A DNA stretch of 64,000 nucleotides from a virus, in the IMG/VR virus record IMGVR_UViG_3300029813_000255, positions 1 to 64,000 of that record. The stretch is one strand, 5' to 3'. The position numbers and the translations under genes are program-made. The notes below the pieces were generated by a model that was not told the origin of the DNA, did not search any database, and was given only the letters and a program-made list of their open reading frames with translations. Shown here in pieces: positions 5,431-42,373 of this stretch; the stretch's first letter is position 1; each line of letters starts with the position of its first letter.

Positions 5431-5446
5431 ATATATAAGAAATAAT

Positions 5447-5557: not shown

Positions 5558-5563
5558 ATAAAT

Positions 5564-10325: not shown

Positions 10326-10333
10326 GATGAAAG

Positions 10334-10699: not shown

Positions 10700-10847
10700 G
10701 AAAAATAAAGAAAGGTATTGTAGAAGTAGAGAACGCAGAGAGTCTGGGACAGCTAAAGGAAGGCGTTTTAGTTGTCCTTAAGAAGATTGACACAGAAATA
10801 GATTATTTGTGGACAGAAATAGATGAGTTACGGAGTAGGGAAATGAA

Positions 10848-11579
10848 ATGAAAGGAACAATAGAGACAGAATTGTTTAAGGGATTAGTGAAAGCTGTATC
10901 GTTGAATGGTGAAATAGAAACACCAGTGTTAACCTTTGAATCCGATCACTTGGAAACAACGAATATAGATATATCGCACTCAGTTATATCAGTTTGCAGA
11001 TTTGGAAAAGATAGTTTTGTGGAGTACAACATAGTGAAAGACGAAGAGATAACAATAGATGCAAGAAAAATTTTGAAATTGATAAAGAATCTTCACGGCG
11101 AAGAGGTAGATATAGAAACAAAAGAGTCATCACTTACTTTGGTAACAGAAACGGAGAAACTAAAAATACCTTTGTTGACAGTGAATAGACCAAAGAAACC
11201 AACAACGGTAAAAATAGAAGAAAATGGAGATATAGCTGTTGATATTGAAATCCAACTAAACGAGACAATTCCGGTACTCACTAAAGAATTAGGAACTTTA
11301 GACGAAACAGATACAATTTTTGAGGTTAAAGATGGTAAATTTTCTATTATGCAAGAAACCACAGATGGATACTCATTTCGTAGTGAAGTAAAGGAACATG
11401 TAGATTCACCGAACCTTGAAAGTAGGTTTAATACTGCTTTTCTTAAAACATTATTTAATTCGTGTATAGACAAAGAGGTTAGTATAAGACTTGCAAAACA
11501 AAAACCACTTGTATTAGATAACAAAACAGAGAATTATCAGACTGTGTTTATGTTAGCGCCGATGATAGAATATAAGTAA
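10848..11579 (+). CDS. pcn: PCNA sliding clamp
   Basis: 243 aa; D.SH.V motif, F..Y, C-terminal KPLVL...FMLAPMI. Confidence 0.88.
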   Translation: MKGTIETELFKGLVKAVSLNGEIETPVLTFESDHLETTNIDISHSVISVCRFGKDSFVEYNIVKDEEITIDARKILKLIKNLHGEEVDIETKESSLTLVTETEKLKIPLLTVNRPKKPTTVKIEENGDIAVDIEIQLNETIPVLTKELGTLDETDTIFEVKDGKFSIMQETTDGYSFRSEVKEHVDSPNLESRFNTAFLKTLFNSCIDKEVSIRLAKQKPLVLDNKTENYQTVFMLAPMIEYK

Positions 11580-11580
11580 A

Positions 11581-11928
11581 ATGAACAAAGAAGAAAAAGA
11601 AGCAGTAATAACCGAATATACAAACTATTGGACTTTAGTAAATAGTGTAAGAGACATAGTTTTGGATGCACTTGATGCCCTTCCGATAGGTGATGCAATA
11701 TCCGTACTGGACAGGGTTAAGACTGAATTAATTCAACAGGAGACGATACTATCAATGGATGAAGAAATGCAATCAGGACAAGATGAAGAGATTGAGAGTG
11801 AGTCAATAAATCCAGTTGCAATAAAAGGTAAGTTGGATGGAAAAGTAGAAGCGTTGTTGGAAAACATTAAAAACATGGGAGATGTAGGAGATATAAGTAA
11901 AGAGGTGAAAGAGAGAATAAATAGTTGA
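11581..11928 (+). CDS. Hypothetical protein
   Basis: ORF. Confidence 0.55.
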   Translation: MNKEEKEAVITEYTNYWTLVNSVRDIVLDALDALPIGDAISVLDRVKTELIQQETILSMDEEMQSGQDEEIESESINPVAIKGKLDGKVEALLENIKNMGDVGDISKEVKERINS

Positions 11929-11949
11929 TGTTAAGGGGTGTGAAAAAAA

Positions 11950-12318
11950 ATGAAGTCGAAAGTCGAAAAGCAGTTGGATATTGAATTTGAGAAAATGGGA
12001 GTAAAACCACATGTGTATCACTTTACAAGCAATGTTTCACCGTTTAATGCAGTTACAATTGTTGACGATAAGATACCACTTGGAGGTAATAAGGGAGCGT
12101 GGAGCAATATAAGAGGAGCAATAGACAATGTATTTAAACGTGAATACCTTTGGATGCAGAAGTGTTGTCCAGCTACTCGGTTTATTCAAGGATTGAAGTT
12201 GAGTCATATTTATGGTGTTGCTATCTGTGATGCACGAGACCAGTTCAATCGTCAACGAGGTCGTATAATTGGTAAAGAGAGGTTGTTAAAACACTTAAAA
12301 GAAGGAATACAAAAATGA
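11950..12318 (+). CDS. Hypothetical viral protein
   Basis: GVAICDARDQFNRQRGRIIG pattern seen in phage proteins. Confidence 0.6.
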   Translation: MKSKVEKQLDIEFEKMGVKPHVYHFTSNVSPFNAVTIVDDKIPLGGNKGAWSNIRGAIDNVFKREYLWMQKCCPATRFIQGLKLSHIYGVAICDARDQFNRQRGRIIGKERLLKHLKEGIQK

Positions 12319-12509
12319 CTGAAAAAGACGATTGGGCTTTCCTAAAGAAAGTCAAAAACGAAATAGAAGATTATCTACGAGGACGAGAAGGAACAATAAC
12401 TATCGAACAACGTAAAGATAAGTTTGTATTGAATATAATGTTAGCGAAGGAAGATAAGTTGAAGATATATTCTAACGATGTACCACGTTGTTTGCACATT
12501 TTGAGGTGA
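12315..12509 (+). CDS. Hypothetical protein
   Basis: Coupled ORF. Confidence 0.5.
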   Translation: MTEKDDWAFLKKVKNEIEDYLRGREGTITIEQRKDKFVLNIMLAKEDKLKIYSNDVPRCLHILR

Positions 12510-12524
12510 AAAATATTAAGAAAA

Positions 12525-12866
12525 ATGAAAAAAATAAGTATATCAGTTCCAACATTGATGGCTAATAGGATTGTTCTTAAAAGTATACAAGAGCCTGATT
12601 CAACAGTAATTGAGCGATTAATGATAGTTAATTACAAAGTTGGCAGTATGAATGAGCATCTACTAAAATACCACAAACTCGATTCAAACGTTCAAAGAGA
12701 AGAGTTTAAAGTAAATTTAGCAGAGACAATGTGCCATTGTATAACACTTGCTATGACAGAAGGATGGGACGTTTCAAAGTTAGTTGCATTAGGGTGGGAC
12801 AAAATCGGTGATAGGTTTAAGGATTTCGAGAAAGGTGTTTGGATAGATAGGAGTATAAAACTATGA
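12525..12866 (+). CDS. MazG-like helical protein (possibly degenerate NTP pyrophosphohydrolase)
   Basis: REEFKVNLAETMCHCITLA...GWD; coupled to the ThyA-like gene. Confidence 0.4.
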   Translation: MKKISISVPTLMANRIVLKSIQEPDSTVIERLMIVNYKVGSMNEHLLKYHKLDSNVQREEFKVNLAETMCHCITLAMTEGWDVSKLVALGWDKIGDRFKDFEKGVWIDRSIKL

Positions 12867-13603
12867 AATTACTTACAAAACTAATAGAAGAAAAGAACTT
12901 TCATAATGCGTATGCAAGAGCAGTACAAGCAGTGATACAAGAAGGAGCAGGTTTAGTAATAGGGGGGGCAGAACAGAGAAAACCAATAAAAGATAGCTGC
13001 ATGTTAATAAGTTTGATGGGGAGTGCAATTAAGCAAATAGAGAATAGAGAATTACATCCACTGTTTCCAACTAAAAGAAAGCACCTTGATGAGTATTGTA
13101 AAGAATTCACAAGAAGCTATGTGGAAAGATACCTTGAAATGCCACTTAATGAGAGATTTGCATATCTGTACTTTGAACGCTTAACATTATATTCCGGATA
13201 TAAAAAAAGCAATACTGTAGTAGATCAAATGTTGTCACTCAGAGAAGAATTGTTGGATAAAAAGGAACTCACTGTAACATCTAATAGAGATCAGGCAATA
13301 ACATGGCAAGTTGGACCTGATAATGAAACGTCATCTCCTCCATGTTTGCAACGTATACAGATAAGGTACATTCCAGAAAATAAAGTAGATGTTCACCTAA
13401 CATGGCGTAGTAGGGATCTTTATGCCGCATGGCAGAGTAATGTTATTTGTTTAATAGACATGCTTAATAGGGAAGTAATTAAGCCAAACAATTGTCAAAT
13501 AGTAAGAGTAATAGATTTCAGTGATAGTTTACACATATACAAAACGGACTTAGAGGAAGCAAAGAAAGTTAAATTAGTTCCCGTTAGTCCGCAGGAATTA
13601 TAG
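12863..13603 (+). CDS. thyA: Thymidylate synthase family protein (archaeal type)
   Basis: PPCLQ catalytic Cys, WRSRD, WQSN, SLHIY. Confidence 0.85.
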   Translation: MKLLTKLIEEKNFHNAYARAVQAVIQEGAGLVIGGAEQRKPIKDSCMLISLMGSAIKQIENRELHPLFPTKRKHLDEYCKEFTRSYVERYLEMPLNERFAYLYFERLTLYSGYKKSNTVVDQMLSLREELLDKKELTVTSNRDQAITWQVGPDNETSSPPCLQRIQIRYIPENKVDVHLTWRSRDLYAAWQSNVICLIDMLNREVIKPNNCQIVRVIDFSDSLHIYKTDLEEAKKVKLVPVSPQEL

Positions 13604-22289: not shown

Positions 22290-23510
22290 GTGAAAATCGT
22301 ATTGATTAATCCACCAAGTCAATATTTAGAGAATGACGCTGCATATCCGCCAATGGGTTTGATGTATTTGGCTACACCTTTAGAAAAAGCAGGGCATGAA
22401 GTAGAGATATTGGATTTGACAGCTACAGTAAATTGGAAGCAAAAAGTACAATCGGTAGAAGCGGATTTGTTTGGTATCACCTGCGTTACTCCTAACTATC
22501 CAACAGTAAAAGAGATATGCCATTTATTGCCTGGAGAAATACCGAAAATGGTTGGCGGTGCACATCCTACTTTTATGCCGTATGATGTATTTAACGATTT
22601 AAAAGGATGTACTGTGGTAAAAGGTGAAGCAGACAATATGATAGTAGATATAGTAAATGATGTCAAAGAAGGTAATCTTTTCGGTATTTATAACGGCATC
22701 CCTAATAAACCTGCACGCCACTTTTTAGCTAACAAACCTGCACGCCACTTAGTAGATTTACATAAATATACTCCAGGTGGAGAGAAGGCAACACCTGTTT
22801 ATACTTCACGGGGATGTCCATATAATTGTACTTTTTGCTCAAAAATCACTGGAAACTATCCTCATATGTTTCATATTTCTCAGATAATTGGAGAAATAGA
22901 AGAGGTAAAAGAGATAGGATTTAATAATATTGTATTTGGCGATGACAATATAGCAGCACGTCCTTTGCATCTAAAAGCGTTATTGGGAGCAGTAGTGCCG
23001 TTAGATATAACATTTAGGTTGAATATGGATTCACGTCATATTACAACGGATATGCTTAAACAAGCAAAAGAAGCAGGTTGCACAGAAATAAGCATGGGTA
23101 TTGAATCCGGTAGTCAAAAAATGTTAAACGCTATGAATAAACAAACAATAGTAGAAAGAAACAAAAGAGCAATAGAAATGATAAAAGAAGCAGAGATCGT
23201 AGCGAAAGCGTATTTCATGGTGAATTTTCCGGGCGAAACCGAAACCACAGTACAAGAAACTATAGACTTCATACGAGGAACACAACCAGATAAAAGCTTT
23301 CTTTCCGCGTTTGCACCGCTTCCAGGTAGCTACGTATTTAAGCATCCTGCAGAATATGGTATCACGTGGATGTCATCGGATTGGAGTGATTACTATTTAG
23401 TGGGTAAAGAATTCGTACCATGTTTTATGTCTGAAGGATTAAGTATTAGAAATCAAACACGTTTTTATCAGACTTTACAGTGCGCAATTGAAATGGAGGA
23501 ACAAAAATGA
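22290..23510 (+). CDS. B12-binding radical SAM protein
   Basis: PPMGLMYLA, GGAHPT, SRGCPYNCTFC, GIESGS. Confidence 0.92.
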   Translation: MKIVLINPPSQYLENDAAYPPMGLMYLATPLEKAGHEVEILDLTATVNWKQKVQSVEADLFGITCVTPNYPTVKEICHLLPGEIPKMVGGAHPTFMPYDVFNDLKGCTVVKGEADNMIVDIVNDVKEGNLFGIYNGIPNKPARHFLANKPARHLVDLHKYTPGGEKATPVYTSRGCPYNCTFCSKITGNYPHMFHISQIIGEIEEVKEIGFNNIVFGDDNIAARPLHLKALLGAVVPLDITFRLNMDSRHITTDMLKQAKEAGCTEISMGIESGSQKMLNAMNKQTIVERNKRAIEMIKEAEIVAKAYFMVNFPGETETTVQETIDFIRGTQPDKSFLSAFAPLPGSYVFKHPAEYGITWMSSDWSDYYLVGKEFVPCFMSEGLSIRNQTRFYQTLQCAIEMEEQK

Positions 23511-25198: not shown

Positions 25199-25510
25199 CT
25201 AATACCCAGCGCCTCCACCACCGGTGCCGCCGAATCCACCTCTGATGTAGTATATGATTAGACCAGCCAGAACAGCTATTACTACGATCACCATCATTGA
25301 CCATCCGGTATTCATAATGGCAGTGATTTTTGTGAGTGCCGTATAGAATATACTACCACTCGTTATCTTTGCTATTCCATATATTTCGTTCACAACGTAT
25401 ACGGAGATTACACCTATCACTACAACGAAGAATATACCCATGGCTACGTCCTGTAGTTCTGCCATAGCTTTAACATCTTTGTGGAATTTTTCTATTGTAT
25501 CTTTTATCAT
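25199..25510 (-). CDS. Putative major capsid protein of spindle-virus type (two hydrophobic helices, class III signal-like leader)
   Basis: Own strong promoter and GGAGGTGA RBS before ATG 25510; FHKDVKA/MAEL leader, helix-loop-helix, Gly-rich tail; isolated on the - strand. Confidence 0.65.
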   Translation of the reverse strand: MIKDTIEKFHKDVKAMAELQDVAMGIFFVVVIGVISVYVVNEIYGIAKITSGSIFYTALTKITAIMNTGWSMMVIVVIAVLAGLIIYYIRGGFGGTGGGGAGY

Positions 25511-25542
25511 GTTGTTCACCTCCGCTTACAAATATATAGAAA

Positions 25543-25564
25543 AAAACATACTATATAAACTTTT
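25543..25564 (-). promoter_or_regulatory. BRE-TATA promoter of the MCP-like gene
   Basis: AAAAGTTTATATAGTATGTTTT on the - strand. Confidence 0.7.
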
Positions 25565-25573
25565 AACAAAAAA

Positions 25574-26170
25574 ATGAAATTCAAAACCCTATTTGCTCTT
25601 TTTCTTAGTGCGTCAATTATTAAACTATTGTTCGCGGCGACCATAAATTCACCGCATATAGTCTTCGATGAGACAATTTTATTTATTGAATCTCAAACTA
25701 TATGGCACAATCACAGTTACTTCGGTGGAAGATTATTTGAATTTCCTCAGTATCCGCCTCTTTATCCTCTGCTTATCAGTCCAACAGCCGTTTTTACTGA
25801 TGTAGTGCAATCTTTTAAAGCGATTTTAGTAATAAACTGTTTTATCTCAAGCACGGTAATCTTTCCTGTGTATTATCTTGCAAAGGAATACCTACCTGAA
25901 CGCGAAACACAGTTTACAGTCATCTTGATGTGTATATTACCATCATGTTTTCTCTATTCTTATGCTGTAATGTGTGAGAACTTGTTCGTACCATTATTTT
26001 TCTGTTCAATATACTTTATAAAGAAGAGCATAGACGAGGATAGTTTCAGAAATAATACTCTAACAGGTGTTTTTATATCACTTACGGTTTTAACAAAACT
26101 AACTGGTTTGGTTCTGGTAGGAGTTTATGTTATAGTTAAAATATTTATGTATTTTAAAAGGATAGAATAA
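25574..26170 (+). CDS. GT-C fold (ArnT/PMT, GT39-like) glycosyltransferase, N-terminal half
   Basis: FDE motif after TM1, YPPLYPLL, ENLFVPL, TKLTG. Confidence 0.75.
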   Translation: MKFKTLFALFLSASIIKLLFAATINSPHIVFDETILFIESQTIWHNHSYFGGRLFEFPQYPPLYPLLISPTAVFTDVVQSFKAILVINCFISSTVIFPVYYLAKEYLPERETQFTVILMCILPSCFLYSYAVMCENLFVPLFFCSIYFIKKSIDEDSFRNNTLTGVFISLTVLTKLTGLVLVGVYVIVKIFMYFKRIE

Positions 26171-27109
26171 ATGAAAAATAATACACTTTTTGGACTTCTT
26201 ATAATCGTTCTTGTAATCATTATGTACTTCTTTCTAAATGCTTCTCACTATGGTACTTCTTCTCACTCAACCATAACAGGGTATGGAACAGGACGATTTA
26301 CAACACAATTTTTTCCGCTTTTACTTGCACAGACTTTGTACCTTTCTCTGGCAGGAGCCGGAATAGCGTTCTTACTTTTTTTCGGTAAGCTCAAACAGTT
26401 CAAATTGTTCTGGTTAATAATTATTAGCTCGTTTATATTCATTGCTTATGCAATGCCTACTATGGGCGTTCACGGACGATATGTGGACGTGTTTGTCCCT
26501 TTGATGATAATAGGTGCATTTGCATATAAGGAAGGAAATAAACTACGTTTATTGCAAGGTTTTACACTTATTCTCGTATCAATACCAATGTTCTGCTTGT
26601 TTTGGAGAGATACAATAAATACTTTCTCTAATATCTATGTACTTATTCCATATATTCAGTATCTCTATGTACCATATATATTTTTAGTGTTTCTTTTTTT
26701 GACATCAATGACTGTTAAAGATAGAAAGAGAATTGCAACGATAACGTTTGTACTTTTACTCATAACGTTCACAGCGGGAAACGTTACAAACTTTCAATAT
26801 CTTAATCAAGCTTCGGATAACGCTTACGAGCACAGTTTAATAGGAAGGTATATCAATGAAAACAAGAACGTTGACGTAACCTTTGACAAGGATAACTTTG
26901 AAGATTGGTGGGGCACGTACTGTTTACTGAATTACTACAACTCAGGATACATACCAGTGGAAGATACTGAAAACATGACAGGCAACTACTTCATTTCGTC
27001 AAAGACACTGCCTTGCGATGTATTAGTAACAAATAAAAAATTCTGTTTAGTAGAAGAAGATAATAGTACAGAACTGTTATATCTATATAGGATAGGAAGA
27101 AAATGCTAA
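26171..27109 (+). CDS. Multi-TM protein, probable C-terminal half of the GT-C enzyme
   Basis: HGRYVDVFVP motif, several TM helices, same frame as the previous ORF. Confidence 0.65.
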   Translation: MKNNTLFGLLIIVLVIIMYFFLNASHYGTSSHSTITGYGTGRFTTQFFPLLLAQTLYLSLAGAGIAFLLFFGKLKQFKLFWLIIISSFIFIAYAMPTMGVHGRYVDVFVPLMIIGAFAYKEGNKLRLLQGFTLILVSIPMFCLFWRDTINTFSNIYVLIPYIQYLYVPYIFLVFLFLTSMTVKDRKRIATITFVLLLITFTAGNVTNFQYLNQASDNAYEHSLIGRYINENKNVDVTFDKDNFEDWWGTYCLLNYYNSGYIPVEDTENMTGNYFISSKTLPCDVLVTNKKFCLVEEDNSTELLYLYRIGRKC

Positions 27110-27537
27110 AAACAACCGTTGTATTGCTTTGCTTCTTGTTTGCTTCATATTTTGACATTAAAACAAGAGAAGTCAGTAACAATTTGTGGGTGATCGTGTT
27201 TCCATCAGGACTGTTATTTTTCAGCTATGCGTTACTTCTTTCGTTTTTCACAGTCTTAACCTCGTTCTTAATAACAGCGACCTTTGCTTTAGGATGCTGG
27301 AAATTTAAACAATTCGGTGGAGCGGATACAAAAGCGATCATAATAATAGGCTTGTTCTATCCATACTGGATGTACGGTGTACCTTTTGCTATTTTAGCTA
27401 CTTCAATAGGTTGTGCTGTACTCATTATTTTTTATGGTATCCAAAAGAAGTTTCATTTTAAGGAGCACTATCCTTTAATCCCATTCTTTACAGTTGGTTT
27501 GATCCTACTGCAAACATTAAGGTTTATAAACTATTAA
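27103..27537 (+). CDS. Prepilin/preflagellin peptidase (A24, PibD/FlaK-like)
   Basis: SYFDIKTREV and FGGADTK catalytic Asp motifs, PLIPF. Confidence 0.88.
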   Translation: MLKTTVVLLCFLFASYFDIKTREVSNNLWVIVFPSGLLFFSYALLLSFFTVLTSFLITATFALGCWKFKQFGGADTKAIIIIGLFYPYWMYGVPFAILATSIGCAVLIIFYGIQKKFHFKEHYPLIPFFTVGLILLQTLRFINY

Positions 27538-27542
27538 TAGGA

Positions 27543-27767
27543 ATGAGTATTATTATGGAAAACGAAAGCACGGAAGTAAAGAAAATGAACAAAGCGACAA
27601 TAATAGGTTTGGTAGTGGTAGTACTATTCTTTATACTACCTATAGCCAATGGAAACTCTGTCATTCCGAGCTGTATATCAGAGATAGAAGTAGGTGAGTT
27701 CATAGGTGGTATATTGAACTACTGGATAACAGTAGTGAAGACAATAATTGCAACCGTGAAGTGGTAA
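27543..27767 (+). CDS. Small membrane protein
   Basis: Hydrophobic segments. Confidence 0.5.
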   Translation: MSIIMENESTEVKKMNKATIIGLVVVVLFFILPIANGNSVIPSCISEIEVGEFIGGILNYWITVVKTIIATVKW

Positions 27768-27828
27768 GCAGAAAAAGAGCGGAGCGAAGCGTAGCGATAA
27801 AAGATTGATGGGAGTGAGTTAAAATTTC

Positions 27829-27904
27829 AGGAGTTACCGATCAGTAACTCCTACCGACACAATAGGAAAGATACTTCTTAGGAGTTACCGATCAGTAACT
27901 CCTA
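27829..27904. repeat. Two copies of a 25-bp near-palindrome, 51 bp apart
   Basis: AGGAGTTACCGATCAGTAACTCCTA at 27829 and 27880; the second copy overlaps the stop of the wHTH gene. Confidence 0.9.
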
Positions 27905-28512
27905 AAAATATCCATTATTTTCTTTAGTTGTTTTGGTTTGAGTGCTGATCTGTAAACCACTTTTCCTTTTGCTAATCTGAACGTTATAAATAGTCCTGCT
28001 TCTTTAAGTTTTTTCAAATGCTTTTTTGTCATACATTCTTTGACATTAAATTTTTTCATAAACTTTTTTATTGTTATTTCTCCTTCTTCTAACAGTATTT
28101 CTATTACTTCAATTGCATAATTTTGTTTTAGTATCTTAGTTATAGTTTCTTTATTTTCATTATAAGATACTGGACTTTTTGGTTTTTCAGAAGCAAAAAA
28201 GTTTATTGCATCTATCTCCAAAAAGTTTTTGAGTTTAAAGCTACGTCCTTCTTTATCGAGAGTAAATGCTATTCTTTTCTCGTGTGTTTTCTTGTTTATT
28301 GAATAAGTTATATATGTTCCTCTTTGTTTTGCGTCAGTTGTATTTATAGGTTCGCGTGCTTTATTAGACCAATTCTCTTCAATAGTAGGGCTTAGTTTCG
28401 ATAAGTCGTTATAATGGTCAATCCCTTTGTTATCAATCCAGTGCCCTAACTTAGTTGCTCCTTCGGGAAAGATAATATTAGGATTCCTGCTTTTGCTTTT
28501 CTGAATTTTCAT
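27892..28512 (-). CDS. C-terminal winged-helix DNA-binding protein (paralog of 62065-62745)
   Basis: IEILLEEGEIT...KHLKKLKEAGL...GKVVY. Confidence 0.7.
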   Translation of the reverse strand: MKIQKSKSRNPNIIFPEGATKLGHWIDNKGIDHYNDLSKLSPTIEENWSNKAREPINTTDAKQRGTYITYSINKKTHEKRIAFTLDKEGRSFKLKNFLEIDAINFFASEKPKSPVSYNENKETITKILKQNYAIEVIEILLEEGEITIKKFMKKFNVKECMTKKHLKKLKEAGLFITFRLAKGKVVYRSALKPKQLKKIMDIFRSY

Positions 28513-28714
28513 TCTTTTTCTCTCGAACTTCTTCTAATACCTGACCAATAAACCAAGAATCCAATCCTTTGCCTAATAGGTCATATTCTTGCATCAATTC
28601 AAATATTTGTGCAGGTACTTTGATGTATATCTGCATTATTTTTTTTCTACTGTTCATCCTTTTTCTCAACTGCTCCTTTTTCCGGGCATCGTTTTCGTCC
28701 CCGCACTGAATCAC
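28478..28714 (-). CDS. RHH-like small protein (paralog of 61893-62096)
   Basis: QIYIKVPAQIFELMQEYDLLGKGLDSWF vs QVYLRVPVFVFDEMQKHGLLNPGLDAWF. Confidence 0.65.
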   Translation of the reverse strand: MIQCGDENDARKKEQLRKRMNSRKKIMQIYIKVPAQIFELMQEYDLLGKGLDSWFIGQVLEEVREKKNENSEKQKQES

Positions 28715-28770
28715 TGAATTGTAGCTACTAATAAGATATTTAAGTCACAGATATATAAAGGTTTAATAAG

Positions 28771-28947
28771 ATGAACGAAAAAATAGAAGAAATAAGAATA
28801 AGTGATGTAGAAACTATAAATAAAATAAAAGCACTACAGAAACACAGAGAGAAATACATTACAAAAGGGAAGAAAGTAACAAAAAGGAAGATAGTACAAG
28901 AGTGTGTTAGGTTTGTGTATAATAATTATTATTTTGAGAAACGATAA
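28771..28947 (+). CDS. Small RHH-like protein (58 aa, below the ORF-track cutoff)
   Basis: MNEKIEEIRISDVETINKIK...KRKIVQECVRF. Confidence 0.45.
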   Translation: MNEKIEEIRISDVETINKIKALQKHREKYITKGKKVTKRKIVQECVRFVYNNYYFEKR

Positions 28948-28953
28948 AGTAAG

Positions 28954-29472
28954 ATGAATTACAAAGGACATTTAATTACAGGTCTTTTTTGTTTCTGTAC
29001 TCTCTCTGTAGCTCTCTTTATGTTTTCGTACCAAACATTTTGCTTTAATGATATACCTATATGGTTTATTGTATGTCTGTTTGCATCACTCGTACCCGAC
29101 CTTGACCATAAAGCCAGTAAGATACATGAATGGGCTTATTTGTGTTCAATCTTTTCGGGTTGCAGTATATATCTTGTTACAGGCAAAGTATATCAAGCAG
29201 TAATAATCACGGTATTGCTCTTACTTATTATCTTTTCTCTCTCTAAATTAAAGCATCGTGGTGTTACGCATAGTGTGGTTGGTTTTGTTGTATTCACATT
29301 GTTATTGTATATTGCTTTTTACTTTATTCATCCACATCCGGCTATAATTACGCTGTTTGGAGCGGTTGGATACCTGAGCCATTTAGTTGGTGATTATGTT
29401 TCTACGACTATGAAAATAAGGAGAAACAAGAAGGAGAAAAGACAGAAGAAGAAAGAAAATAAAAATATTTAA
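28954..29472 (+). CDS. Membrane-bound metal-dependent hydrolase (YdjM-like)
   Basis: H..G, PDLDH, HRGVTHS, YLSHLVGD. Confidence 0.85.
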   Translation: MNYKGHLITGLFCFCTLSVALFMFSYQTFCFNDIPIWFIVCLFASLVPDLDHKASKIHEWAYLCSIFSGCSIYLVTGKVYQAVIITVLLLLIIFSLSKLKHRGVTHSVVGFVVFTLLLYIAFYFIHPHPAIITLFGAVGYLSHLVGDYVSTTMKIRRNKKEKRQKKKENKNI

Positions 29473-29644
29473 ACCTTTATATAGAAGAAAATATATTTAC
29501 GTATTAAAGATAAAATGCCTTATATTAAAGACCCTGACTTTCGGGAGATATGCGTACTGGTGGAAATGATAGGAGAAACATCAGAGAATAGCGGAATCAC
29601 AAAAATGGTAAATAAAACAAACAATATCTTGGAGGGATACAAAC

Positions 29645-30466
29645 GTGAATGAGGAAGAGAGCGAAAAAGAATTTGTTGGTGTATGTGAATGCGGCTGCGG
29701 ACAGCAAGTTAAACCAGGACAGAGATTCATTCAAGGACATAATGTAAGACTCATTTTATATGAAGTAAAAAAGAAAGCAGCAGAAAAAGGAAATATTACA
29801 CGTAAGCGAAAAAGCGAAATTAAGCTTGGTATTCGTCCTCCACCCGAACCGATGCTGTGTGCATGTGGTTGCGGTAAGAAAGCAAAACTTGGAAATAGGT
29901 ATATTATTGGTCACAACCAACAAGGTAAACACCATAGTGAAGCGCATAAGAAATATTTATCAGCTATAAATATAGGTGAAAACCATCCAATGTTTGGTAC
30001 ACATCCTTCAGAAAAGACCAGACAAAAAATGTCAGATTCTCACATAGGAAATCCTGGGTTTTGGACAGGGAAAAAATTTAGTGCTGAACATGTAAAAAAT
30101 ATATCTAAGACACACACAGGAAAAAATGGCGACAAAGGTTCAAACTGGCAAGGCGGAATCTCGTTTTTACCTTATTGTGAAAAGTTTACTAAAGAATTTA
30201 AAGAACGGGTTAGAGATTTCTTTGGAAGGTGTTGTTATCTCTGCGCTAAAAACGAAATAGATAATGGTCGGAAACTTTCAGTACATCACGTTAACTATCA
30301 AAAAGATGCTTGTTGTATAGACGAAGTTAGACCTTTGTTCGTTCCTTTATGCCAAAGTTGCCATTCAAAAGTACACAACGATAGAGATGGATGGGAAAAG
30401 TTCTTTACATTGAGCTTAGATTTTTTGACAGATGGAAAATGTTTTACACCGAAAGGAGATAGGTAA
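29645..30466 (+). CDS. NUMOD3 + HNH homing-type endonuclease
   Basis: CxCGCG repeats, HPSEKTRQKMS, CCYLC...VHHVNY...LCQSCH. Confidence 0.85.
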   Translation: MNEEESEKEFVGVCECGCGQQVKPGQRFIQGHNVRLILYEVKKKAAEKGNITRKRKSEIKLGIRPPPEPMLCACGCGKKAKLGNRYIIGHNQQGKHHSEAHKKYLSAINIGENHPMFGTHPSEKTRQKMSDSHIGNPGFWTGKKFSAEHVKNISKTHTGKNGDKGSNWQGGISFLPYCEKFTKEFKERVRDFFGRCCYLCAKNEIDNGRKLSVHHVNYQKDACCIDEVRPLFVPLCQSCHSKVHNDRDGWEKFFTLSLDFLTDGKCFTPKGDR

Positions 30467-30468
30467 GC

Positions 30469-31026
30469 ATGTCAGAAGAATATGAAGATAGCGAAGAAGA
30501 ATATGTTAGTAGCGGCGGTGGAATAACGGCTGGTAGTGGAGATATACAAAGACCGCCTGTTGTAGAGCCAGCAATTTCATTCGAAAACGAGTGGGTTAGA
30601 TTTTTAGCCCTGTTAAGCGATGATTCTTCTCTTGGTCCGTTGATAAGTTATATTGAAAGTGTTGAACTAACAGATCGGGCAAAGGCGAAACTTCAAATAT
30701 ACATAATAACGTTGTTAGATAAGGAGTTTGCAATATCAAGGCTTGAAAATCGAGAGGACTACATGAAATTGATGGACGATAAATATATTTTGGATGCTGA
30801 CTTACCACTGGGACTGACGAGATTTGATATTACTCCTGAATTTCAACATATTCTTGATCTGGTTAGAATCAAGTTTGGAATCAAAATAAGGAGAAGTATG
30901 GGTGCTGGCTTTGAACGTAAAATAATAGCCACTACAAGGTCTGAGAACGTTAATGAGGAGCGGATAAGAACAAAGGCAGCGAAAGCAGGAACAATTCAAA
31001 AGATAAAAGGGATGTTTGGAGATTAG
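30469..31026 (+). CDS. Hypothetical protein (morphogenesis region)
   Basis: 185 aa ORF. Confidence 0.65.
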   Translation: MSEEYEDSEEEYVSSGGGITAGSGDIQRPPVVEPAISFENEWVRFLALLSDDSSLGPLISYIESVELTDRAKAKLQIYIITLLDKEFAISRLENREDYMKLMDDKYILDADLPLGLTRFDITPEFQHILDLVRIKFGIKIRRSMGAGFERKIIATTRSENVNEERIRTKAAKAGTIQKIKGMFGD

Positions 31027-31044
31027 TAGGAAGAGATAAAAAAA

Positions 31045-31845
31045 ATGGTAGTTTGTATATCAGAGGGTTATATTTTTGTATTAGTATTGATAATTGCTCT
31101 CTTAGCTATTGCAATAATTTTATTTTACACCAAGATAAAAAGAAACGCACCTGAAGCATTAATTATAGCGAAGGCAAGGGATAAAGGAACACCACTTGCT
31201 CTACTTCATTATCCTGAGGGAACGATTAGGTTACGTGAGCTTAAAGTTGAGAAAGATGTACCAGGAACATCAACACCATATTTTCTTATTGAGAAAGCAG
31301 GTATAAAATTTAGGAATCCAGACGGACGTAAGGTCGAACGATGGGAAGGCGATATACCTGTTATGAACTATTTTGTAAATATGCCTGAATCAGTAGCGAT
31401 AACAGATGTAGTGGCATATTCACAACTCAAAGATCATCTCAAAGTAAAAGGGATGGACATTGAAACTATTGAAGACCTCGCGTTTTTTGTGCTATCTGAG
31501 TACGAACGCACTGGTGATATGAATGTAGCGATGGAAAGTGCAAAGATTGATAGTGATGAGACAAAGGGTCGGGTCTTGAATTTCCTGAATTATGTTGAAG
31601 AACACAGAAAAGAACTGGAAAGTCTCAAACTTGAGTCTGGAATCTTTACATTCCAGACGGCAATACGTGCTCTGGACGCAACAATAGCTTATACCTCATC
31701 GAATGTAGCTCACATGAAAAGTGTTATCGAAGCGAGTATCAGGCACCAGCTCGAATCTTCAAGCACTGACATAATGAAATACGGTGTATTTGTTATAATG
31801 GTTGCTTTAGGACTGGGAACATTCATTATGTTAGCAAAGGGATAG
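31045..31845 (+). CDS. Membrane protein with N- and C-terminal TM helices
   Basis: Hydrophobic termini. Confidence 0.7.
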   Translation: MVVCISEGYIFVLVLIIALLAIAIILFYTKIKRNAPEALIIAKARDKGTPLALLHYPEGTIRLRELKVEKDVPGTSTPYFLIEKAGIKFRNPDGRKVERWEGDIPVMNYFVNMPESVAITDVVAYSQLKDHLKVKGMDIETIEDLAFFVLSEYERTGDMNVAMESAKIDSDETKGRVLNFLNYVEEHRKELESLKLESGIFTFQTAIRALDATIAYTSSNVAHMKSVIEASIRHQLESSSTDIMKYGVFVIMVALGLGTFIMLAKG

Positions 31846-31855
31846 GAACAGAAAA

Positions 31856-32554
31856 ATGGAAATATGCGAAATATGTAAAGAAAAAGGAAGAAGAAACACT
31901 AAATTCAAGAATAGTATGGGTCTGGGAATACACCTCGGTAAAAAGCATGGAATGAGTTTAGAAGAATATAGAAACACGTATAAGCAAGCAAAACCAATAG
32001 AGAAAGAAGAAGTAGTAGAAGAAATACACGTTGAAGAAGAGGAAGAACACGTACATGACGAACCAGTAGAACCAGTTGTCGAACCGGAAGTAGAATCGGA
32101 GAAAGAAATTAATGTACCTGAAACCGTAACACCCGAAACCAATGGACTACAGGAAATAAGTGATTATAGTCTATTAGATCCAGGTAATTTTGTAGCTATG
32201 TTCAGGTTTGAAAATACAGGAAACGAGACATACAAAAAAATTATTGGTATAGGAACTGTAATAGAAGATGAAAAAAGCACTGTTTCATCTCTGGTAATCG
32301 GTGACGATGGTTTAATCATTCCTGTGTTTCTGATACCCGAATTTGTTGGAATTGTTGAAATTAACAGTAAAGATTTTGGAAAAGCAGTTAAGAGCGGATG
32401 GATAAAACAGAAGAAGACAATGAAACAAAAGGTAAAGAAAGTATCGCATAGATCAGGATTATTTACACGGAAAAGAAAGTCTGTTACAAAAAACGTTACA
32501 AACGAAGAGTTAGTAGAAGGGTTCTCAAAAATTTTAGCAAGGCGCAAAAGATAA
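31856..32554 (+). CDS. C2H2 Zn-finger protein with acidic linker
   Basis: CEIC...HLGKKH. Confidence 0.7.
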   Translation: MEICEICKEKGRRNTKFKNSMGLGIHLGKKHGMSLEEYRNTYKQAKPIEKEEVVEEIHVEEEEEHVHDEPVEPVVEPEVESEKEINVPETVTPETNGLQEISDYSLLDPGNFVAMFRFENTGNETYKKIIGIGTVIEDEKSTVSSLVIGDDGLIIPVFLIPEFVGIVEINSKDFGKAVKSGWIKQKKTMKQKVKKVSHRSGLFTRKRKSVTKNVTNEELVEGFSKILARRKR

Positions 32555-32639
32555 AGCTTTATATAGAACAAATATTTTTTCTCATATGTACGAATTTAGA
32601 CTTCATAGAAACGCCTAATAAAAAGCGTAGCACGAGAAA

Positions 32640-35600
32640 ATGGAAACCACAAAAAGAGATGGGAAGAGAAAGAAATTATTTCCATTTGGAGACTACGACA
32701 AGGACGGCGTACCTAATCTAAGAGATTGTGATCCATTTGATTCCGCAAAACATGGTATATCATATGGTCCCAGAGGAAGAAGTATGCCATCTCGTGGAAG
32801 AGGTGGAGGAACATATACTGTGGGCGGGCAAACTGCAAAATTTGCTGGTGGACGAATTGTAAGTGTAGGTCCCAGTACAGGTGTAAGTAGAGGTGGAGGT
32901 AGAGGTGCACCTTCCGTATATGAAACATTAACACCATACGGACAATCGGTATATCGTGCAACTCGTGGTATGACACCAAGTAAACGTGGAGGTGCTATTG
33001 CTACATACGAAAGGGCACAGCGCGCACCAGGCACACTTACTTCAACGGAACGTGCAATGATCAGATCACATCTTGCTGAGTTTTCTTCTGAATTCAGACG
33101 AAAATTTGCTGAAGTTGAACGTAAGCTTACTCAGGCTGAACTAAAAAAGAAACTGGCAGAGAGAAAGAAGAAAATAATAGCAGAACGTCATGTTATAAAA
33201 AAAGGAGTCCCGTTATTCATACCAGGTGTTCCAAGCCTACTTTATGGAGTCACACCTAAAACAAAGGAGATGATTAGAGGAATAAAACCTAAAATAGTGC
33301 CTACAACTGTATCGTTGGTTAAAAAGGGTATTAAATTTACTCCTTTTGGAATTGCCACTGCTCCTGCTGTAGCTATTGCAGAAAGAATAAAACCAAAAAT
33401 AATACCTGCAATCAAAGAATACGAAACCTTTGTAAAAACACAAATACGAAAGACGAAAGAACATCCTATGGTTAAACCCTTTATGTATGCAACTACACGC
33501 GAGTATATCGAAGCAACCCCAGAAAAACAGGTTATAATGGCAATAGAATCAGCTAAAGGAAGAGCATTAACAACAAAAGAAAAAGCTGATATACATAAAG
33601 ACGTTGTAAAAGGAGAAATAGCGCATGGTAAATATAGAAAGTTATTTGGTTTACCAGCAAAACCAACACCGCGTGAAGTTGAAGCTGGTAAATTCAGAGC
33701 AGAAGTTCTAACAGGTCAATTAGCTCCTGCAGAAGAACGTTTTGCGAGATTGATTATCGAACCAATGGGATTAGCTGTGAAGGGCGAAAAAGCTAAAGCA
33801 AGAGCAGAACAGGCAAAACGAATAGAAAGCAGTTATAAAATATCTGAAAGTCATATAAAAAAAGAATGGATAAGTCCGAAAGGAGAAGTTGTTTTACCAC
33901 TAAAAATAAAGCCAGGTATAGAAACACTTGCCAGAAAAAACCCAGAAAAATACACTACTCCAGAAGGATTCTATAAAAGAGAATACGTTGAACTTACACC
34001 GGAAGCACAGAAATATGCTACTGCATATGAAACATATATAAACGAGTCTGCAAAACTCGGTGAAATGCCAAAAGCACATCCAACAAGACAGTTTGCCGCA
34101 GGAGGTGTAAAAATGCTTGCTGGTCTGCCTTTAATGCCGATTTTTATAGGACGAGTTGCTGCTGAGACTGTCGTCAAACCAACTGCTGCTCCAGGTAAGG
34201 CAGTTGCTTTTGGTACAGGAATGTATAAATACGCTAAAAAAGAGCCTTATGAATTTACCGGATCGGTAGCCGCAATGTGGGGTTTGGGTGGATTCAAAGG
34301 TGCTCCTGTGAAACCTAAAATTGCCGTTGCCAAATTTCCAAAAGCCAAAGCAGTAAGTATTGGTATAGAAAGAGTAATAAGACCGGGATTCTTAAAGAGA
34401 GGGGGATATAGAGAATATTATCCAGGAATTACAATTGGAAAAGGAGGTATAAAAAGGGTTTCAATTGGTAAACCAAAGATCAAAGGGGAAATATACGGAG
34501 ATAAACCAATTGAAATAACAACACCTTTTGAAGCAAGATTAGTAGTGAGTGCTATACCAGCAGAAGCAGCGAAAATACTTGAATCGAGAGCGGTATTGCG
34601 TTATATTACAAAAGCAGGGGTAACAGCAAGAGAATTAACACCTGTTATCAGAGAAACGTTAGGACATCATGGATTAACAAAATCTACTAATACAGTAATT
34701 AAACTTCTAAAAAAGGAAAAAGCAGACTTACATGGTTCAATAATGCAAGAAGCTGCAACAAGAAAATATGGTATTACACGCAGGACACCTGCCGATATTG
34801 ACTTAAAAGTTGCCGATATGGAAAGATTTGCAAGAAACGCAATCAAAGAAATTAACAAAGCCGAAGGTAGAGAAGCCGTTATACTCAAAGGTAAAAAGGT
34901 TATAATCAAGAAAACAGGCGAAAAATTATTTGATATTCACGGCAAAGGAGAACCTGGATTGTATGGTTCGATTTTTGATGAAGGTTATATGGGTTTAGGA
35001 ATGAAAGAAGATCCATACTTTAAAACGGCCGAAGGATTAAAAACTACTTCACTTTTAAGACAAACAACCAGAAAGTTTACAGCGGCACAAACAATTGCCG
35101 CTAAAGTTCGCGAATTTCCAATGGCTATGAAAGAAGTAGCTGAAGTATTCAGAGGTATGAAATACACACCAAAACTTAAATCAAAGATACTTAAAGGGCA
35201 TCCAAGAGGTGATAAAAGTATAATTTCTGCTGGAACCGATAGATTACAATTCCATCATATTGTTAAAACAGGAAAAGGTGAAACAGGAGTTTTAATGACT
35301 TATAATGAGCATTTAGCCATTGAAACTGCAATGGGTCGTCTTGGACCAGCAATCGGAAAAGATACTTTATTTCACAAATTATTTAGAGAAAGACCATCTC
35401 TTACACCGAAAGAAATTCAAGATATAATTAGACAAGGAAAATCTAAGCAGGTTCGGAACGAAATTAAATATATCTTAAAGGAAATAAAAGCAAGAGAAAC
35501 AGGTATTGATCCTTTCACAATAAAAGGAAGAATAATGCCTGAGCATAAAGGTAGAGTGAAAGATATTGCCGATGCCTACTTTGATAGTAAAGCGATGATA

Positions 35601-36152
35601 GCAGGATTAAAACATAGAGGTAGAATAGTATCAGCAAGACAAGCAGATATTCATTTAGATAAGTGGTTAGACTCGTGGGGAAAAGATACCGCAAACCATG
35701 TTAAAAGTTTGTATAAAGAGACAATAAAGAAAGAAGGTACTGAAAAAGCGTGGTTAGGTAGTTTTGAAGAGAGACCATATTCTTTATCGAAATCATACAA
35801 TCTTGTTAGTCAACTTAGGTATGTTCCACCTATATCAGCTATACCATCAGCTATACCATCAGCTATACCATCAGGACTTGTACCTTCAAAAATACCACCA
35901 CCGAAGTATCCGCCTTCAAAAATACCACCACCGAAGTATCCGCCTTCAAAAATACCGCCTTCAAAAATACCACCAATTGTACCGAAAGTGCCACTGAAAC
36001 TAAAACCGAAACCCGAAACGAAAGAGGAAAAAAGACGCAGACTAAAGCGAAAAAGAGAGACATATTACAAATACGGTGAAATTACACCAATCGCAACACC
36101 GGAGCAAATATTAGGAGGTATCTTCACAAAAGGAAAAAAATGGGGAAAATAA
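32640..36152 (+). CDS. Large basic protein: Ca-binding DxDxDG motif, RGG region, nucleotidyltransferase-like domain, Pro-rich tail
   Basis: GDYDKDGVPN; LHGS...PADIDL...FDIH...RVKDIAD; similar to 58261-59184. Confidence 0.7.
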   Translation: METTKRDGKRKKLFPFGDYDKDGVPNLRDCDPFDSAKHGISYGPRGRSMPSRGRGGGTYTVGGQTAKFAGGRIVSVGPSTGVSRGGGRGAPSVYETLTPYGQSVYRATRGMTPSKRGGAIATYERAQRAPGTLTSTERAMIRSHLAEFSSEFRRKFAEVERKLTQAELKKKLAERKKKIIAERHVIKKGVPLFIPGVPSLLYGVTPKTKEMIRGIKPKIVPTTVSLVKKGIKFTPFGIATAPAVAIAERIKPKIIPAIKEYETFVKTQIRKTKEHPMVKPFMYATTREYIEATPEKQVIMAIESAKGRALTTKEKADIHKDVVKGEIAHGKYRKLFGLPAKPTPREVEAGKFRAEVLTGQLAPAEERFARLIIEPMGLAVKGEKAKARAEQAKRIESSYKISESHIKKEWISPKGEVVLPLKIKPGIETLARKNPEKYTTPEGFYKREYVELTPEAQKYATAYETYINESAKLGEMPKAHPTRQFAAGGVKMLAGLPLMPIFIGRVAAETVVKPTAAPGKAVAFGTGMYKYAKKEPYEFTGSVAAMWGLGGFKGAPVKPKIAVAKFPKAKAVSIGIERVIRPGFLKRGGYREYYPGITIGKGGIKRVSIGKPKIKGEIYGDKPIEITTPFEARLVVSAIPAEAAKILESRAVLRYITKAGVTARELTPVIRETLGHHGLTKSTNTVIKLLKKEKADLHGSIMQEAATRKYGITRRTPADIDLKVADMERFARNAIKEINKAEGREAVILKGKKVIIKKTGEKLFDIHGKGEPGLYGSIFDEGYMGLGMKEDPYFKTAEGLKTTSLLRQTTRKFTAAQTIAAKVREFPMAMKEVAEVFRGMKYTPKLKSKILKGHPRGDKSIISAGTDRLQFHHIVKTGKGETGVLMTYNEHLAIETAMGRLGPAIGKDTLFHKLFRERPSLTPKEIQDIIRQGKSKQVRNEIKYILKEIKARETGIDPFTIKGRIMPEHKGRVKDIADAYFDSKAMIAGLKHRGRIVSARQADIHLDKWLDSWGKDTANHVKSLYKETIKKEGTEKAWLGSFEERPYSLSKSYNLVSQLRYVPPISAIPSAIPSAIPSGLVPSKIPPPKYPPSKIPPPKYPPSKIPPSKIPPIVPKVPLKLKPKPETKEEKRRRLKRKRETYYKYGEITPIATPEQILGGIFTKGKKWGK
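35834..35975 (+). repeat. In-frame tandem repeats (12 bp x3; 30 bp x2 plus partial units)
   Basis: ATCAGCTATACC x3 (SAIP); CCTTCAAAAATACCACCACCGAAGTATCCG x2 (PSKIPPPKYP). Confidence 0.9.
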
Positions 36153-36427
36153 GAACATTTCTTAGTGACAAAAACGCACAGTCTGGAGGCGTGATTACTT
36201 TTGTGGCTGTAATTTGTCTATTTTCATTTTTATATATATGCCTTGGCATGTTCATGGATCAAGTTATTACTATGCAGAATACCTTTGATCTACCATGTAC
36301 GCAAGAACGAAAGGACGCGCTGGAGACATGCTTTTTATATTGGTATTCGTTGCCCATTCTGGTATTACTGGGGATCGTCACCTGGATGATAAAAAATGCG
36401 CTCCGCGCAAAGTCAGGTTGGGTGTGA
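36140..36427 (+). CDS. Two-helix membrane protein with class III signal-like leader (minor capsid/pilin-like)
   Basis: FLSDKNA/QSGGVITF. Confidence 0.65.
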   Translation: MGKIRTFLSDKNAQSGGVITFVAVICLFSFLYICLGMFMDQVITMQNTFDLPCTQERKDALETCFLYWYSLPILVLLGIVTWMIKNALRAKSGWV

Positions 36428-36434
36428 CAAAGTG

Positions 36435-36737
36435 ATGGATAACAAAGGCTTTGGTATAATAGATGGAGTACTGACACTTACCATAGGCATTGTCGTCACG
36501 ACCTTTATTGTCTTCGCAGCCGGTATGGCACTGGACAGCTTTATATTCGAGTTTCAGTCGCTTGAGTTTGTATTAACAGATACTTTTTCAGAAGCAATGG
36601 AAGGTGTTAACGTACTCGGTGAAATGTTTTATATGATACCAATATTTATGCTGTTCATACTTACAGTATGGTTCTTCGCTGGAATTGTGCGTCGCCACAC
36701 CTATACAAGATATGACGAAGAAGAGGAAGAGTGGTAA
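36435..36737 (+). CDS. Two-helix membrane protein with class III signal-like leader (minor capsid/pilin-like)
   Basis: MDNKG/FGIIDGVL from ATG 36435. Confidence 0.65.
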   Translation: MDNKGFGIIDGVLTLTIGIVVTTFIVFAAGMALDSFIFEFQSLEFVLTDTFSEAMEGVNVLGEMFYMIPIFMLFILTVWFFAGIVRRHTYTRYDEEEEEW

Positions 36738-36740
36738 AAA

Positions 36741-37187
36741 ATGGAAAGAAAGAACAACATGGACGCATTACTTCTTGATAAAGAATGGTTACAGCGGAAA
36801 TATACTAAAGAAAAATGCAGTGTTGATGATATTGCTAATTTGTTAAAATGCAGTACTCATTCGGTACGCGATGCAATATCCCACCATAATATACTGGTGC
36901 ATAGTAACAGAGAAAACGACGTTATTAAACCGTTATATCCAAAGAAGCACAATGAAATGAAAACCATAATAATGTGGCTGTGTGGTCTATGGAGTTTAGG
37001 ACTCGGATTCCGAATGTCTTTAGAGCTGTTGCTATCAGATGGTTGGATTCACGTGCCACAGCACCCATTGAACATCTATTTCGATTTTATCCCTCTCTGC
37101 GTGTTTGGATTAATAACAGTATGGTTTCAAACTAAGGAATTGTTTAAGGTGGTACAAAAGAAAGGATGGGTGGATGCAACAGAATGA
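36741..37187 (+). CDS. HTH domain fused to two TM helices
   Basis: KEWLQRKY...SVDDIANLLKCS..SVR; hydrophobic C-terminal half. Confidence 0.55.
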   Translation: MERKNNMDALLLDKEWLQRKYTKEKCSVDDIANLLKCSTHSVRDAISHHNILVHSNRENDVIKPLYPKKHNEMKTIIMWLCGLWSLGLGFRMSLELLLSDGWIHVPQHPLNIYFDFIPLCVFGLITVWFQTKELFKVVQKKGWVDATE

Positions 37188-41158: not shown

Positions 41159-42373
41159 ATGACAAAAGTAAAGTGTTTGATATGTGGAAAAGAATTTGAT
41201 TGGCTACCTCCTCACTTGAGAATTCATAATATTACTACCAAAGAATATTACAATAGATTTCCAGACGCTAAAATTATGGCAGATAATTTATCTCGTACAG
41301 GAGAAAATAATCCTGCGTATGGTAAACCTGCATGGAATAAAGGATTAACTAAAGAAACTGATAAAAGAGTTGAGAAATATTCAGGTAGCAGACCAGGTTC
41401 AAGACCTGATTTAAAAGAAAAACAAACAGGGAAAACATTTGAAGAGATTTGGGGTATAGAAAAAGCTACTGAAATAAAAAAAAATATAAGTGAAACAGCT
41501 AAAGGAAAATATGCCTCTGGTGAGACTATTTCAGAAAGGAAAGGCAAAACAAAGGAAAACGATACTGGATGTAAAAGAACAAGTGAAAAACTTAAAGGAA
41601 AACCAAAATCCGAAGAACACAAAAAAAAGTTGCGAGGAAAAAGAGGTCCAAATGAAAAATTAAAAGGGCGAATAATGTCAGAAGAGACCAGAAGAAAGAT
41701 GAGCAAAGCGAAAGACAAACACGCTAAACGAAAAGTTAATTGTAAATACTGCAATAAAGAATTTGTTGCATATCGTTCAGTAATTGAAAGTGGTGTAGGA
41801 ATTTTTTGTTCGATAAAATGCAAAGGAAAATACCAAACAGAACTTAATAAAGCTAACATATTAAAAACTAAATGTTCTTATTGCGGTAAAGAGATAACAA
41901 TTACTCCGTCTCGAATGAAGGCGCGTACTAATCTTTTTTGTTCAGTAAAATGTAATGCAAAATGGAAATCCGAAAATCTAACTAAAGAAAAATCATATCT
42001 ATGGAGGGGTGGAATATCCTTTAAACCATACTGTGAAAAATTTAATAATAATCTGAAAGAACGCGTTCGTACTTTTTTTGGTAGATGCTGTTATCTCTGC
42101 GGAAAAAATGAAATGGAAAATGGAAAAAAGCTTGACGTACATCACGTAAACTATCAAAAAATGGCGTGTTGTTCCGAAGAGATTAGACCTTTATTTGTTC
42201 CTTTATGTACATCATGTCATGGAAAAACACACGGAAACAGAGAATACTGGAAAGATTTTTTTACTACAAGTTTAGAATACTTAACAGATGGGAAGTGTTT
42301 CTATACCAAAGATGAAACAAAAGAAAGAATTCACAATATAAATATAGGCGGTGGTTCCCCTGCGCGCATTTGA
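41159..42373 (+). CDS. Zn-finger/NUMOD3 + HNH homing-type endonuclease
   Basis: C2H2 N-terminus, PAWNKGLTKETD, FCS..C repeats, HNH domain closely similar to 29645-30466. Confidence 0.85.
   Translation: MTKVKCLICGKEFDWLPPHLRIHNITTKEYYNRFPDAKIMADNLSRTGENNPAYGKPAWNKGLTKETDKRVEKYSGSRPGSRPDLKEKQTGKTFEEIWGIEKATEIKKNISETAKGKYASGETISERKGKTKENDTGCKRTSEKLKGKPKSEEHKKKLRGKRGPNEKLKGRIMSEETRRKMSKAKDKHAKRKVNCKYCNKEFVAYRSVIESGVGIFCSIKCKGKYQTELNKANILKTKCSYCGKEITITPSRMKARTNLFCSVKCNAKWKSENLTKEKSYLWRGGISFKPYCEKFNNNLKERVRTFFGRCCYLCGKNEMENGKKLDVHHVNYQKMACCSEEIRPLFVPLCTSCHGKTHGNREYWKDFFTTSLEYLTDGKCFYTKDETKERIHNINIGGGSPARI

Follow-up and report, generated by a model that had tools for sequence, protein, structure and literature searches.

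A viral A24 peptidase gene adjoins the gene of a candidate spindle-virus coat protein with a class III-like leader

The DNA analysed here (the window), from an archaeal virus, is a 64,000-nucleotide stretch comprising the first 64 kb of the 80,611-bp IMG/VR virus record IMGVR_UViG_3300029813_000255, which is flanked by direct terminal repeats. Positions 25,199 to 36,737 of the window include the gene of a small aspartyl peptidase of the A24 (class III signal, or prepilin) type, which stands beside the gene of a membrane hairpin protein, MCP1, that we regard as a candidate major capsid protein (MCP). A sequence-only reading of this DNA had located the peptidase, together with three small two-helix proteins bearing class III-like leaders, and had proposed that the enzyme matures the capsid. 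All four genes lie where that reading had placed them, and they are given here with the glycosyltransferase gene that precedes the peptidase gene; a slash marks a proposed cleavage site.

25199-25510, minus strand: coat-protein candidate MCP1, a 103-amino-acid precursor with a 15-amino-acid leader ending in K-A, two hydrophobic helices and a Gly-rich tail
25574-27109, plus strand: GT-C membrane glycosyltransferase, PMT_2-like (PF13231, E 3.8e-11), the first gene of an operon that ends in the peptidase gene
27103-27537, plus strand: minimal A24 (class III signal) peptidase of 144 amino acids, catalytic D18 and D75 (motif GGAD)
36140-36427, plus strand: 95-amino-acid two-helix protein in the structural block, leader ...FLSDKNA/QSGG, with N at -2 and K at -3
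36435-36737, plus strand: 100-amino-acid two-helix protein with an acidic tail, 5-amino-acid leader MDNKG/FGIIDG, with K at -2 and G at -1

The peptidase matches PF01478 with 46.2 bits (cut-off 26.5; E 6.8e-12) over profile positions 2-104 of 104, and a six-frame search of the 80,611-bp genome with the same profile (46.9 bits) returns it as the sole A24 match. A profile of the enzyme and its relatives matches the FlaK structure 3S0X (E 2.3e-6), and the alignment places SYFDIK (D18) on the DFR of FlaK and FGGADTK (D75) on its GGGD. Both aspartates are invariant across eight sequences, which include six relatives of 72-85% identity and the more distant L002 enzyme described below. Moreover, comparison with the L001 copy gives a ratio of nonsynonymous to synonymous substitution rates (dN/dS) of 0.11 at a dS of 0.68, indicating purifying selection. 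The structural model contains six helices with a mean predicted local distance difference test score (pLDDT) of only 59.7, and a Foldseek search with this low-confidence model ranks FlaK 3S0X first at a probability of 0.96, though with an E of 0.43 for the 89 columns aligned. The gene has only a weak Shine-Dalgarno (SD) sequence. On sequence grounds it is an intact A24 gene under selection, as the sequence-only reading had it, and retention of D18 and D75 together with the dN/dS of 0.11 argues for an active protease.

The viral enzyme has in common with FlaK, PibD and EppA (MEROPS A24B) an A24 domain in a membrane protein predicted to be polytopic, the helix-1 Asp and the GxGD-type Asp, and the substrates of those enzymes resemble the viral candidates in having short basic leaders that end in G or A and precede a hydrophobic helix. 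The viral protein differs from FlaK in having 144 amino acids and in being without the C-terminal part of FlaK. It is not a FlaK orthologue, because the FlaK equivalog model NF040695 (NCBIfam) gives 32 bits against a cut-off of 330, and the match covers model positions 5-94 of 230 only. It also differs from FlaK, PibD and EppA in being encoded by a virus, with no pilus or archaellum genes near, and in that its proposed substrates are two-helix hairpins, not pilins.

The first 7 nt of the peptidase gene are shared with the end of the GT-C gene, and both the overlap and the gene order are kept in L001. The MCP1 gene is divergent from this operon and 55 nt from it. The GT-C gene itself is read as two exactly abutting open reading frames, 25574-26170 and 26171-27109, the stop codon of one ending at 26170 and the next ATG beginning at 26171.

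Translation of MCP1 starts at the ATG at 25510, 5 nt past a perfect SD sequence, GGAGGTGA, that lies 3' of two A/T-rich promoter boxes, and the IMG gene call is likewise 103 amino acids long. The precursor begins MIKDTIEKFHKDVKA/MAELQDVAMG, with K at -2 and A at -1 of a putative cut after K14-A15. An AlphaFold2 model shows a hairpin of helices 2-46 and 54-89 (pLDDT 71.6). MCP1 matches phrog_16261, annotated as 'virion structural protein', with an E of 1.1e-4; counting MCP1, three members of the family match this PHROG (E 1e-4 to 9e-4), the other two being only about 32-35% identical to MCP1. An exhaustive HMMER search found 22 metagenomic relatives that are 24-59% identical to MCP1. Among the 19 family sequences that have a leader, 18 carry G or A at -1, a column whose spacing from the first hydrophobic core is constant, while K or R occupies -2 or -3 in 14 and D occupies -4 in 12; the leaders are otherwise poorly conserved. 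Family member P0015 begins at or near the proposed mature end of MCP1, and the same is true of a second copy in this genome:

54483-54734, plus strand: leaderless MCP1 paralogue of 83 amino acids, VP3-like, beginning at or near the proposed mature MCP1 start

This paralogue was found among 467 open reading frames of the genome by hmmsearch with the A3 profile of the MCP family (E 3.6e-5, aligned from profile position 32), and the two paralogue genes have the identical perfect SD sequence (25511-25530 and 54468-54482). The phrog_16261 match and the leaderless VP3-like paralogue, in a genome that was searched for an HK97 capsid protein and a terminase with no match to either, suggest that the hairpin beside the peptidase looks like a spindle-virus coat protein; this part of the sequence-only reading is supported. 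We reject a head-tailed virus identity on the same ground, the genome being without HK97 capsid and terminase matches. Comparison of the MCP1 model by VIA-align returns generic helical hairpins only (Z up to 8.8), PDB sequence searches with MCP1 return noise only, and phrog_16261 is absent from SSV1, His1 and PAV1. Comparison by hhalign gives 1.7% for His1 VP21 and 14.6% for PAV1 ORF121. As a side observation, P0009 (161 amino acids, on a 721-bp metagenome contig) shares about 91% identity with MCP1 over the part from residue 36 onward, and an unrelated, hydrophilic stretch of 93 residues at its start takes the place of the leader and first helix; the protein is a product of either chimeric assembly or recombination.

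The cut in the SSV1 coat protein was mapped in the 1980s. In virions, E66 is the N-terminus of SSV1 VP1, and residues 61-65, immediately before it, are KLTKG (PMC5748691, primers and text); the VP1 reading frame gives ...PKLTKG EATNIG... at this point. Infectivity is lost when VP1 residues 61-65 are deleted, the substitutions E66Q and E66A do no such harm, the maturation protease is stated to be 'not known', and fuselloviruses encode no protease (PMC5748691). When six fusellovirus VP1 precursors are aligned, [KR][GA] stands before the mature Glu in every one (TKG, TRG, TKG, RRA, KKA and RRA). Under the rules for class III signal peptides, the Gly at -1 is critical and a basic residue is usual at -2 and -3; PibD, a flexible enzyme, can cut leaders as short as 3-4 residues (PMC4187195). 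As judged from these sequences, the fusellovirus VP1 site [KR][GA]/E is a canonical class III-type site, and it is of the identical type to that in the MCP1 leader. We found no paper, in a literature search, that links the SSV1 VP1 protease to a prepilin peptidase.

The resemblance of SSV1 VP1 to MCP1 goes further. Both are small precursors with two hydrophobic helices, [KR][GA] before the mature end and a Ser/Thr/Gly loop between the helices; the polar start EATNIG that follows the VP1 site is similar to MAELQDVA in MCP1; and each virus has a leaderless paralogue elsewhere in its genome, VP3 in SSV1 and the 54483 protein here. Against this, VP1 leaders reach about 70 amino acids compared with 15 in MCP1, the conserved Glu at +1 of VP1 is matched by a variable position in the MCP1 family, and fuselloviruses are without a protease gene of their own whereas this virus has an A24 gene. 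In direct comparisons, hhalign gives the MCP1 family 30% against SSV1 VP1 and 20.5% against a profile of VP1 from seven viruses, both of which are low; the register in both runs places V-K-A/M on T-K-G/E and ITSGS on LTSGT.

The remaining hairpins differ in how well they resemble class III substrates. Eight homologues of the 36435 protein (77-91% identical) keep MDN[KR][GA][FY]GII[DE]G, and at the proposed site the only exchanges are K/R at -2 and G/A at -1. The protein reads FGIIDGVLTLTIGIVV here, and a D at +5 is also a feature of EppA substrates. This protein was rejected as an MCP paralogue (hhalign 0.2%, hmmsearch E 8.9). The leader of the 36140 protein is loosely class III-like and not canonical (N at -2, A at -1, K at -3). 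It resembles the FMxDxxAQ leaders of the MCP-family members P0010 and P0016; against the MCP family, the protein gives 30% over 86 columns by hhalign but an E of only 0.56 by hmmsearch. Of the proposal that three hairpins with class III-like leaders are encoded here, the part concerning MCP1 (K-A) and the 36435 protein (K-G) stands, with conserved sites in both, and the part concerning the 36140 protein is weakened by its non-canonical leader and by a genome-wide motif count at chance level. The three proposed substrates (95-103 amino acids) each have two hydrophobic helices, and no one of them shows the architecture of type IV pilins and archaellins, a single N-terminal helix followed by a beta-rich head. 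The sequence-only reading had named conventional pilins with globular heads as one outcome that would count against it, and what we find instead are three two-helix hairpins with no Pilin_N match.

Two more proteins of this genome might be considered as substrates. One of them is encoded 6 nt 3' of the peptidase gene:

27543-27767, plus strand: 74-amino-acid protein with one hydrophobic helix (...KKMNKA/TIIGLVVVV), a weak extra candidate substrate

In L001, the homologous gene begins without this NKA. The other is a 252-amino-acid protein encoded in the enzyme half of the genome (14460-15218, plus strand), which starts MVDKKG/FLLMGILLLGGLF, has a single N-terminal helix and, of all proteins of the genome, comes closest to the canonical class III pattern in its start. 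It has no match in Pfam, NCBIfam or the ESM Atlas, and it could be either a further substrate or a plain signal anchor.

Searches of the genome for a T2SSE ATPase, a T2SSF platform protein and an archaeal Pilin_N domain gave no match, and the enzyme thus stands without a filament system; a virus-borne pilus system was rejected because ATPase, platform protein and pilin are all unmatched. A search for a VirB4-type ATPase was likewise negative in this genome. The link to pilus biogenesis that the sequence-only reading had drawn therefore comes down to the shared type of enzyme: the proposed substrates are hairpins and not pilins, and no gene for an assembly ATPase or platform protein was matched. 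Relatives of the peptidase (P0004), of MCP1 (P0041) and of the 36435 protein (P0037) are each listed with a 60,473-bp contig, and the identical value means that the three are probably encoded on a single contig.

A24 genes also occur on mobile elements of another kind. In L002, a 143-kb metagenome contig, the region 4419-13369 encodes a 211-amino-acid A24 peptidase that is 29% identical to the viral enzyme and is placed between a VirB4-like ATPase, a VirB2-like protein with two helices and a polytopic protein of large size, a neighbourhood with the look of an archaeal conjugative element. A scan of GTDB genomes with patterns built partly from L002 returned mostly A24 genes of Nitrososphaerota at about 30% identity. 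Thaumarchaeal integrative and conjugative elements (ICEs) resemble this virus in that a prepilin peptidase gene is carried on a mobile element, and differ in that they carry VirB4/VirD4 or FlaI/TadC together with pilins (PMC6563490), none of which was matched here.

The wider genome encodes a DNA polymerase of family B, a helicase resembling XPD and a protein like thymidylate synthase, and it has a long glycosylation cluster, which includes a B12-binding radical SAM methyltransferase-like gene (22290-23510, plus strand). The block that lies 3' of the enzyme genes encodes very large proteins, either secreted or anchored, along with many small ones of the membrane. No tRNA genes were found in the record. 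Homing-endonuclease-like genes of the NUMOD3 and HNH types are dispersed in the structural block (29645-30466, 36741-37187 and 41159-42373, plus strand), one of them immediately 3' of the 36435 hairpin gene. The layout is like that of the large viruses of spindle shape from ANME-1 (anaerobic methanotrophic) archaea, in which a large genome has an enzyme half apart from a structural half (PMC9894754). An RNA-primed-type family B polymerase and a thymidylate synthase are common to those viruses and this one, and their hydrophobic helical MCPs, of which itzamnaviruses have two copies, are comparable to the candidate MCP pair described here (PMC9894754). Unlike the gene content reported here, a viral prepilin peptidase is not mentioned in that paper or its supplements (PMC9894754). 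Ten other proteins of the structural block had no PHROGs match. Scans of IMG/VR with the peptidase, the 36435 protein, a 266-amino-acid protein, the MCP alignments A4 and A6, P0049 and P0028 returned no related locus; GTDB genomes scanned with the MCP gave no match; and a phage collection contained nothing related to the region, to the peptidase or to the MCP.

These observations lead us to the following model. The class III signal peptidase that the virus encodes, which belongs to the GxGD aspartyl proteases of family A24, would remove short cytoplasmic leaders from membrane-inserted hairpin proteins of the virion. Its main substrate would be the MCP1 precursor made from the adjoining gene, which would be cut after K14-A15, and a second one is probably the 36435 protein, with its cut after K4-G5. 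After this step, the outer loop of the coat protein, rich in Ser and Thr, may receive glycans from the GT-C enzyme, whose gene shares the operon of the peptidase. In our judgement, belief and doubt are about evenly balanced on the proposition that the viral enzyme, acting on the cytoplasmic side of the membrane, removes leaders from the coat protein and from one or more further hairpins.

Several points weigh against this model. Cleavage of MCP1 and of the other hairpins is something that we infer from conservation and gene context. The GxGD motif of the peptidase reads G-G-A-D, with Ala in place of the Gly before the Asp. In the MCP1 family, the basic residue is at the canonical -2 position in only 6 of the 19 leaders, being mostly at -3, and the MCP1 site lies about eight residues ahead of the hydrophobic core, the intervening MAELQDVA being polar in part (E at +3, D at +6). 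Homology between MCP1 and VP1 is unproven and statistically inconclusive on the sequences, given the hhalign values of 20-30% and the fact that PF06281 matches nothing in the genome at E values up to 10, or by hmmscan. Fold searches are uninformative for a hairpin of this kind, Foldseek returning no match for the MCP1 model in BFVD and PDB. Finally, of the 33 plausible genes whose product has a hydrophobic helix at the N-terminus, 5 have [KR][GA] just before the helix, compared with 3.3 expected from shuffled leaders used as control, which is chance level. The bare motif is thus not evidence, and the case has to be made from conservation, gene order and the SSV1 site. As far as alignment can tell, conservation exceeds chance, with G or A at -1 in nearly every leader of a family as diverged as this one. 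The motif count, the 36140 leader and the fact that fuselloviruses have no protease gene (PMC5748691) would all fit leaders that are left uncut, or for which the host's class III peptidase or an unrelated protease does the cutting; the viral A24 protein would then be an accessory to the glycosylation cluster with some other membrane role, and [KR][GA] would reflect only the positive-inside rule combined with small residues ahead of a helix. We consider this unlikely, although it is the alternative to which we give the most weight. Both catalytic aspartates are kept under a dN/dS of 0.11, the fixed-column G or A goes beyond what the positive-inside rule would lead one to expect, and a host enzyme that serves the relatives would be compatible with processing by the viral enzyme in this lineage.

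The peptidase might also be directed at the host, where it would process, over-process or compete for pilins and archaellins, not capsid proteins, which could alter the cell surface, for example to block superinfection through pili, or favour attachment and release. The usual substrates of A24 enzymes are pilins and archaellins (PMC4187195), and archaeal viruses use or encode pilins, as in the case of SNJ2, the pilins of which are cut by host PibD (PMC12426801). Moreover, since this virus has no recognisable pilin, host proteins would be the only canonical substrates. A host that has pilins already has its own peptidase, however, and the viral gene is operon-linked to the GT-C gene and adjoins the coat-protein gene with no surface-filament gene beside it, while it is the viral hairpins that bear conserved leaders resembling cut sites; on balance we find a host target improbable. 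It is less probable still that the 25199 hairpin is, instead of the major capsid protein, a membrane protein of another kind such as an egress protein, a holin-like protein or a membrane protein resembling a conjugative pilin, the pair then being akin to the A24 enzymes and VirB2-like hairpins of archaeal ICEs. The nearest A24 protein that we found outside this lineage (L002) does lie beside a VirB4-like ATPase and a two-helix protein, prepilin peptidases are carried by thaumarchaeal ICEs (PMC6563490), and the MCP assignment draws on weak PHROG matches with E values of about 1e-4. Nevertheless, the genome gave no match to a VirB4-type or T2SSE-type ATPase, and the same 'virion structural protein' PHROG is matched independently by three family members. 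In addition, both paralogues have a perfect SD sequence, a precursor accompanied by a leaderless copy reproduces the VP1/VP3 arrangement, and the searches for HK97 capsid and terminase yielded no other capsid type.

Maturation of MCP1 by the viral peptidase would have consequences for other spindle-shaped viruses. We suggest tentatively, and with rather more doubt than conviction, that A24 peptidases are the maturation proteases of the coat proteins of spindle-shaped archaeal viruses in general. Most of these viruses, SSV1 included, would borrow PibD or FlaK from the host, and the present lineage would have its own copy, perhaps as its hosts often lack one, with the capsid precursor being handled in the manner of a pilin up to the cleavage step. 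The position of an A24 gene next to a coat-protein gene with a matching site provides a concrete candidate for the enzyme responsible for SSV1-type maturation, and the viral peptidase and MCP1 form a putative enzyme-substrate pair that is open to test in vitro. If the proposal is true, the resistance to SSVs that follows deletion of PibD (PMC7217056) could be read in another way, in that the enzyme may be needed for coat-protein maturation as well as for pili, and the assembly of a uniquely archaeal type of virion would be tied to a cellular pilin-processing step.

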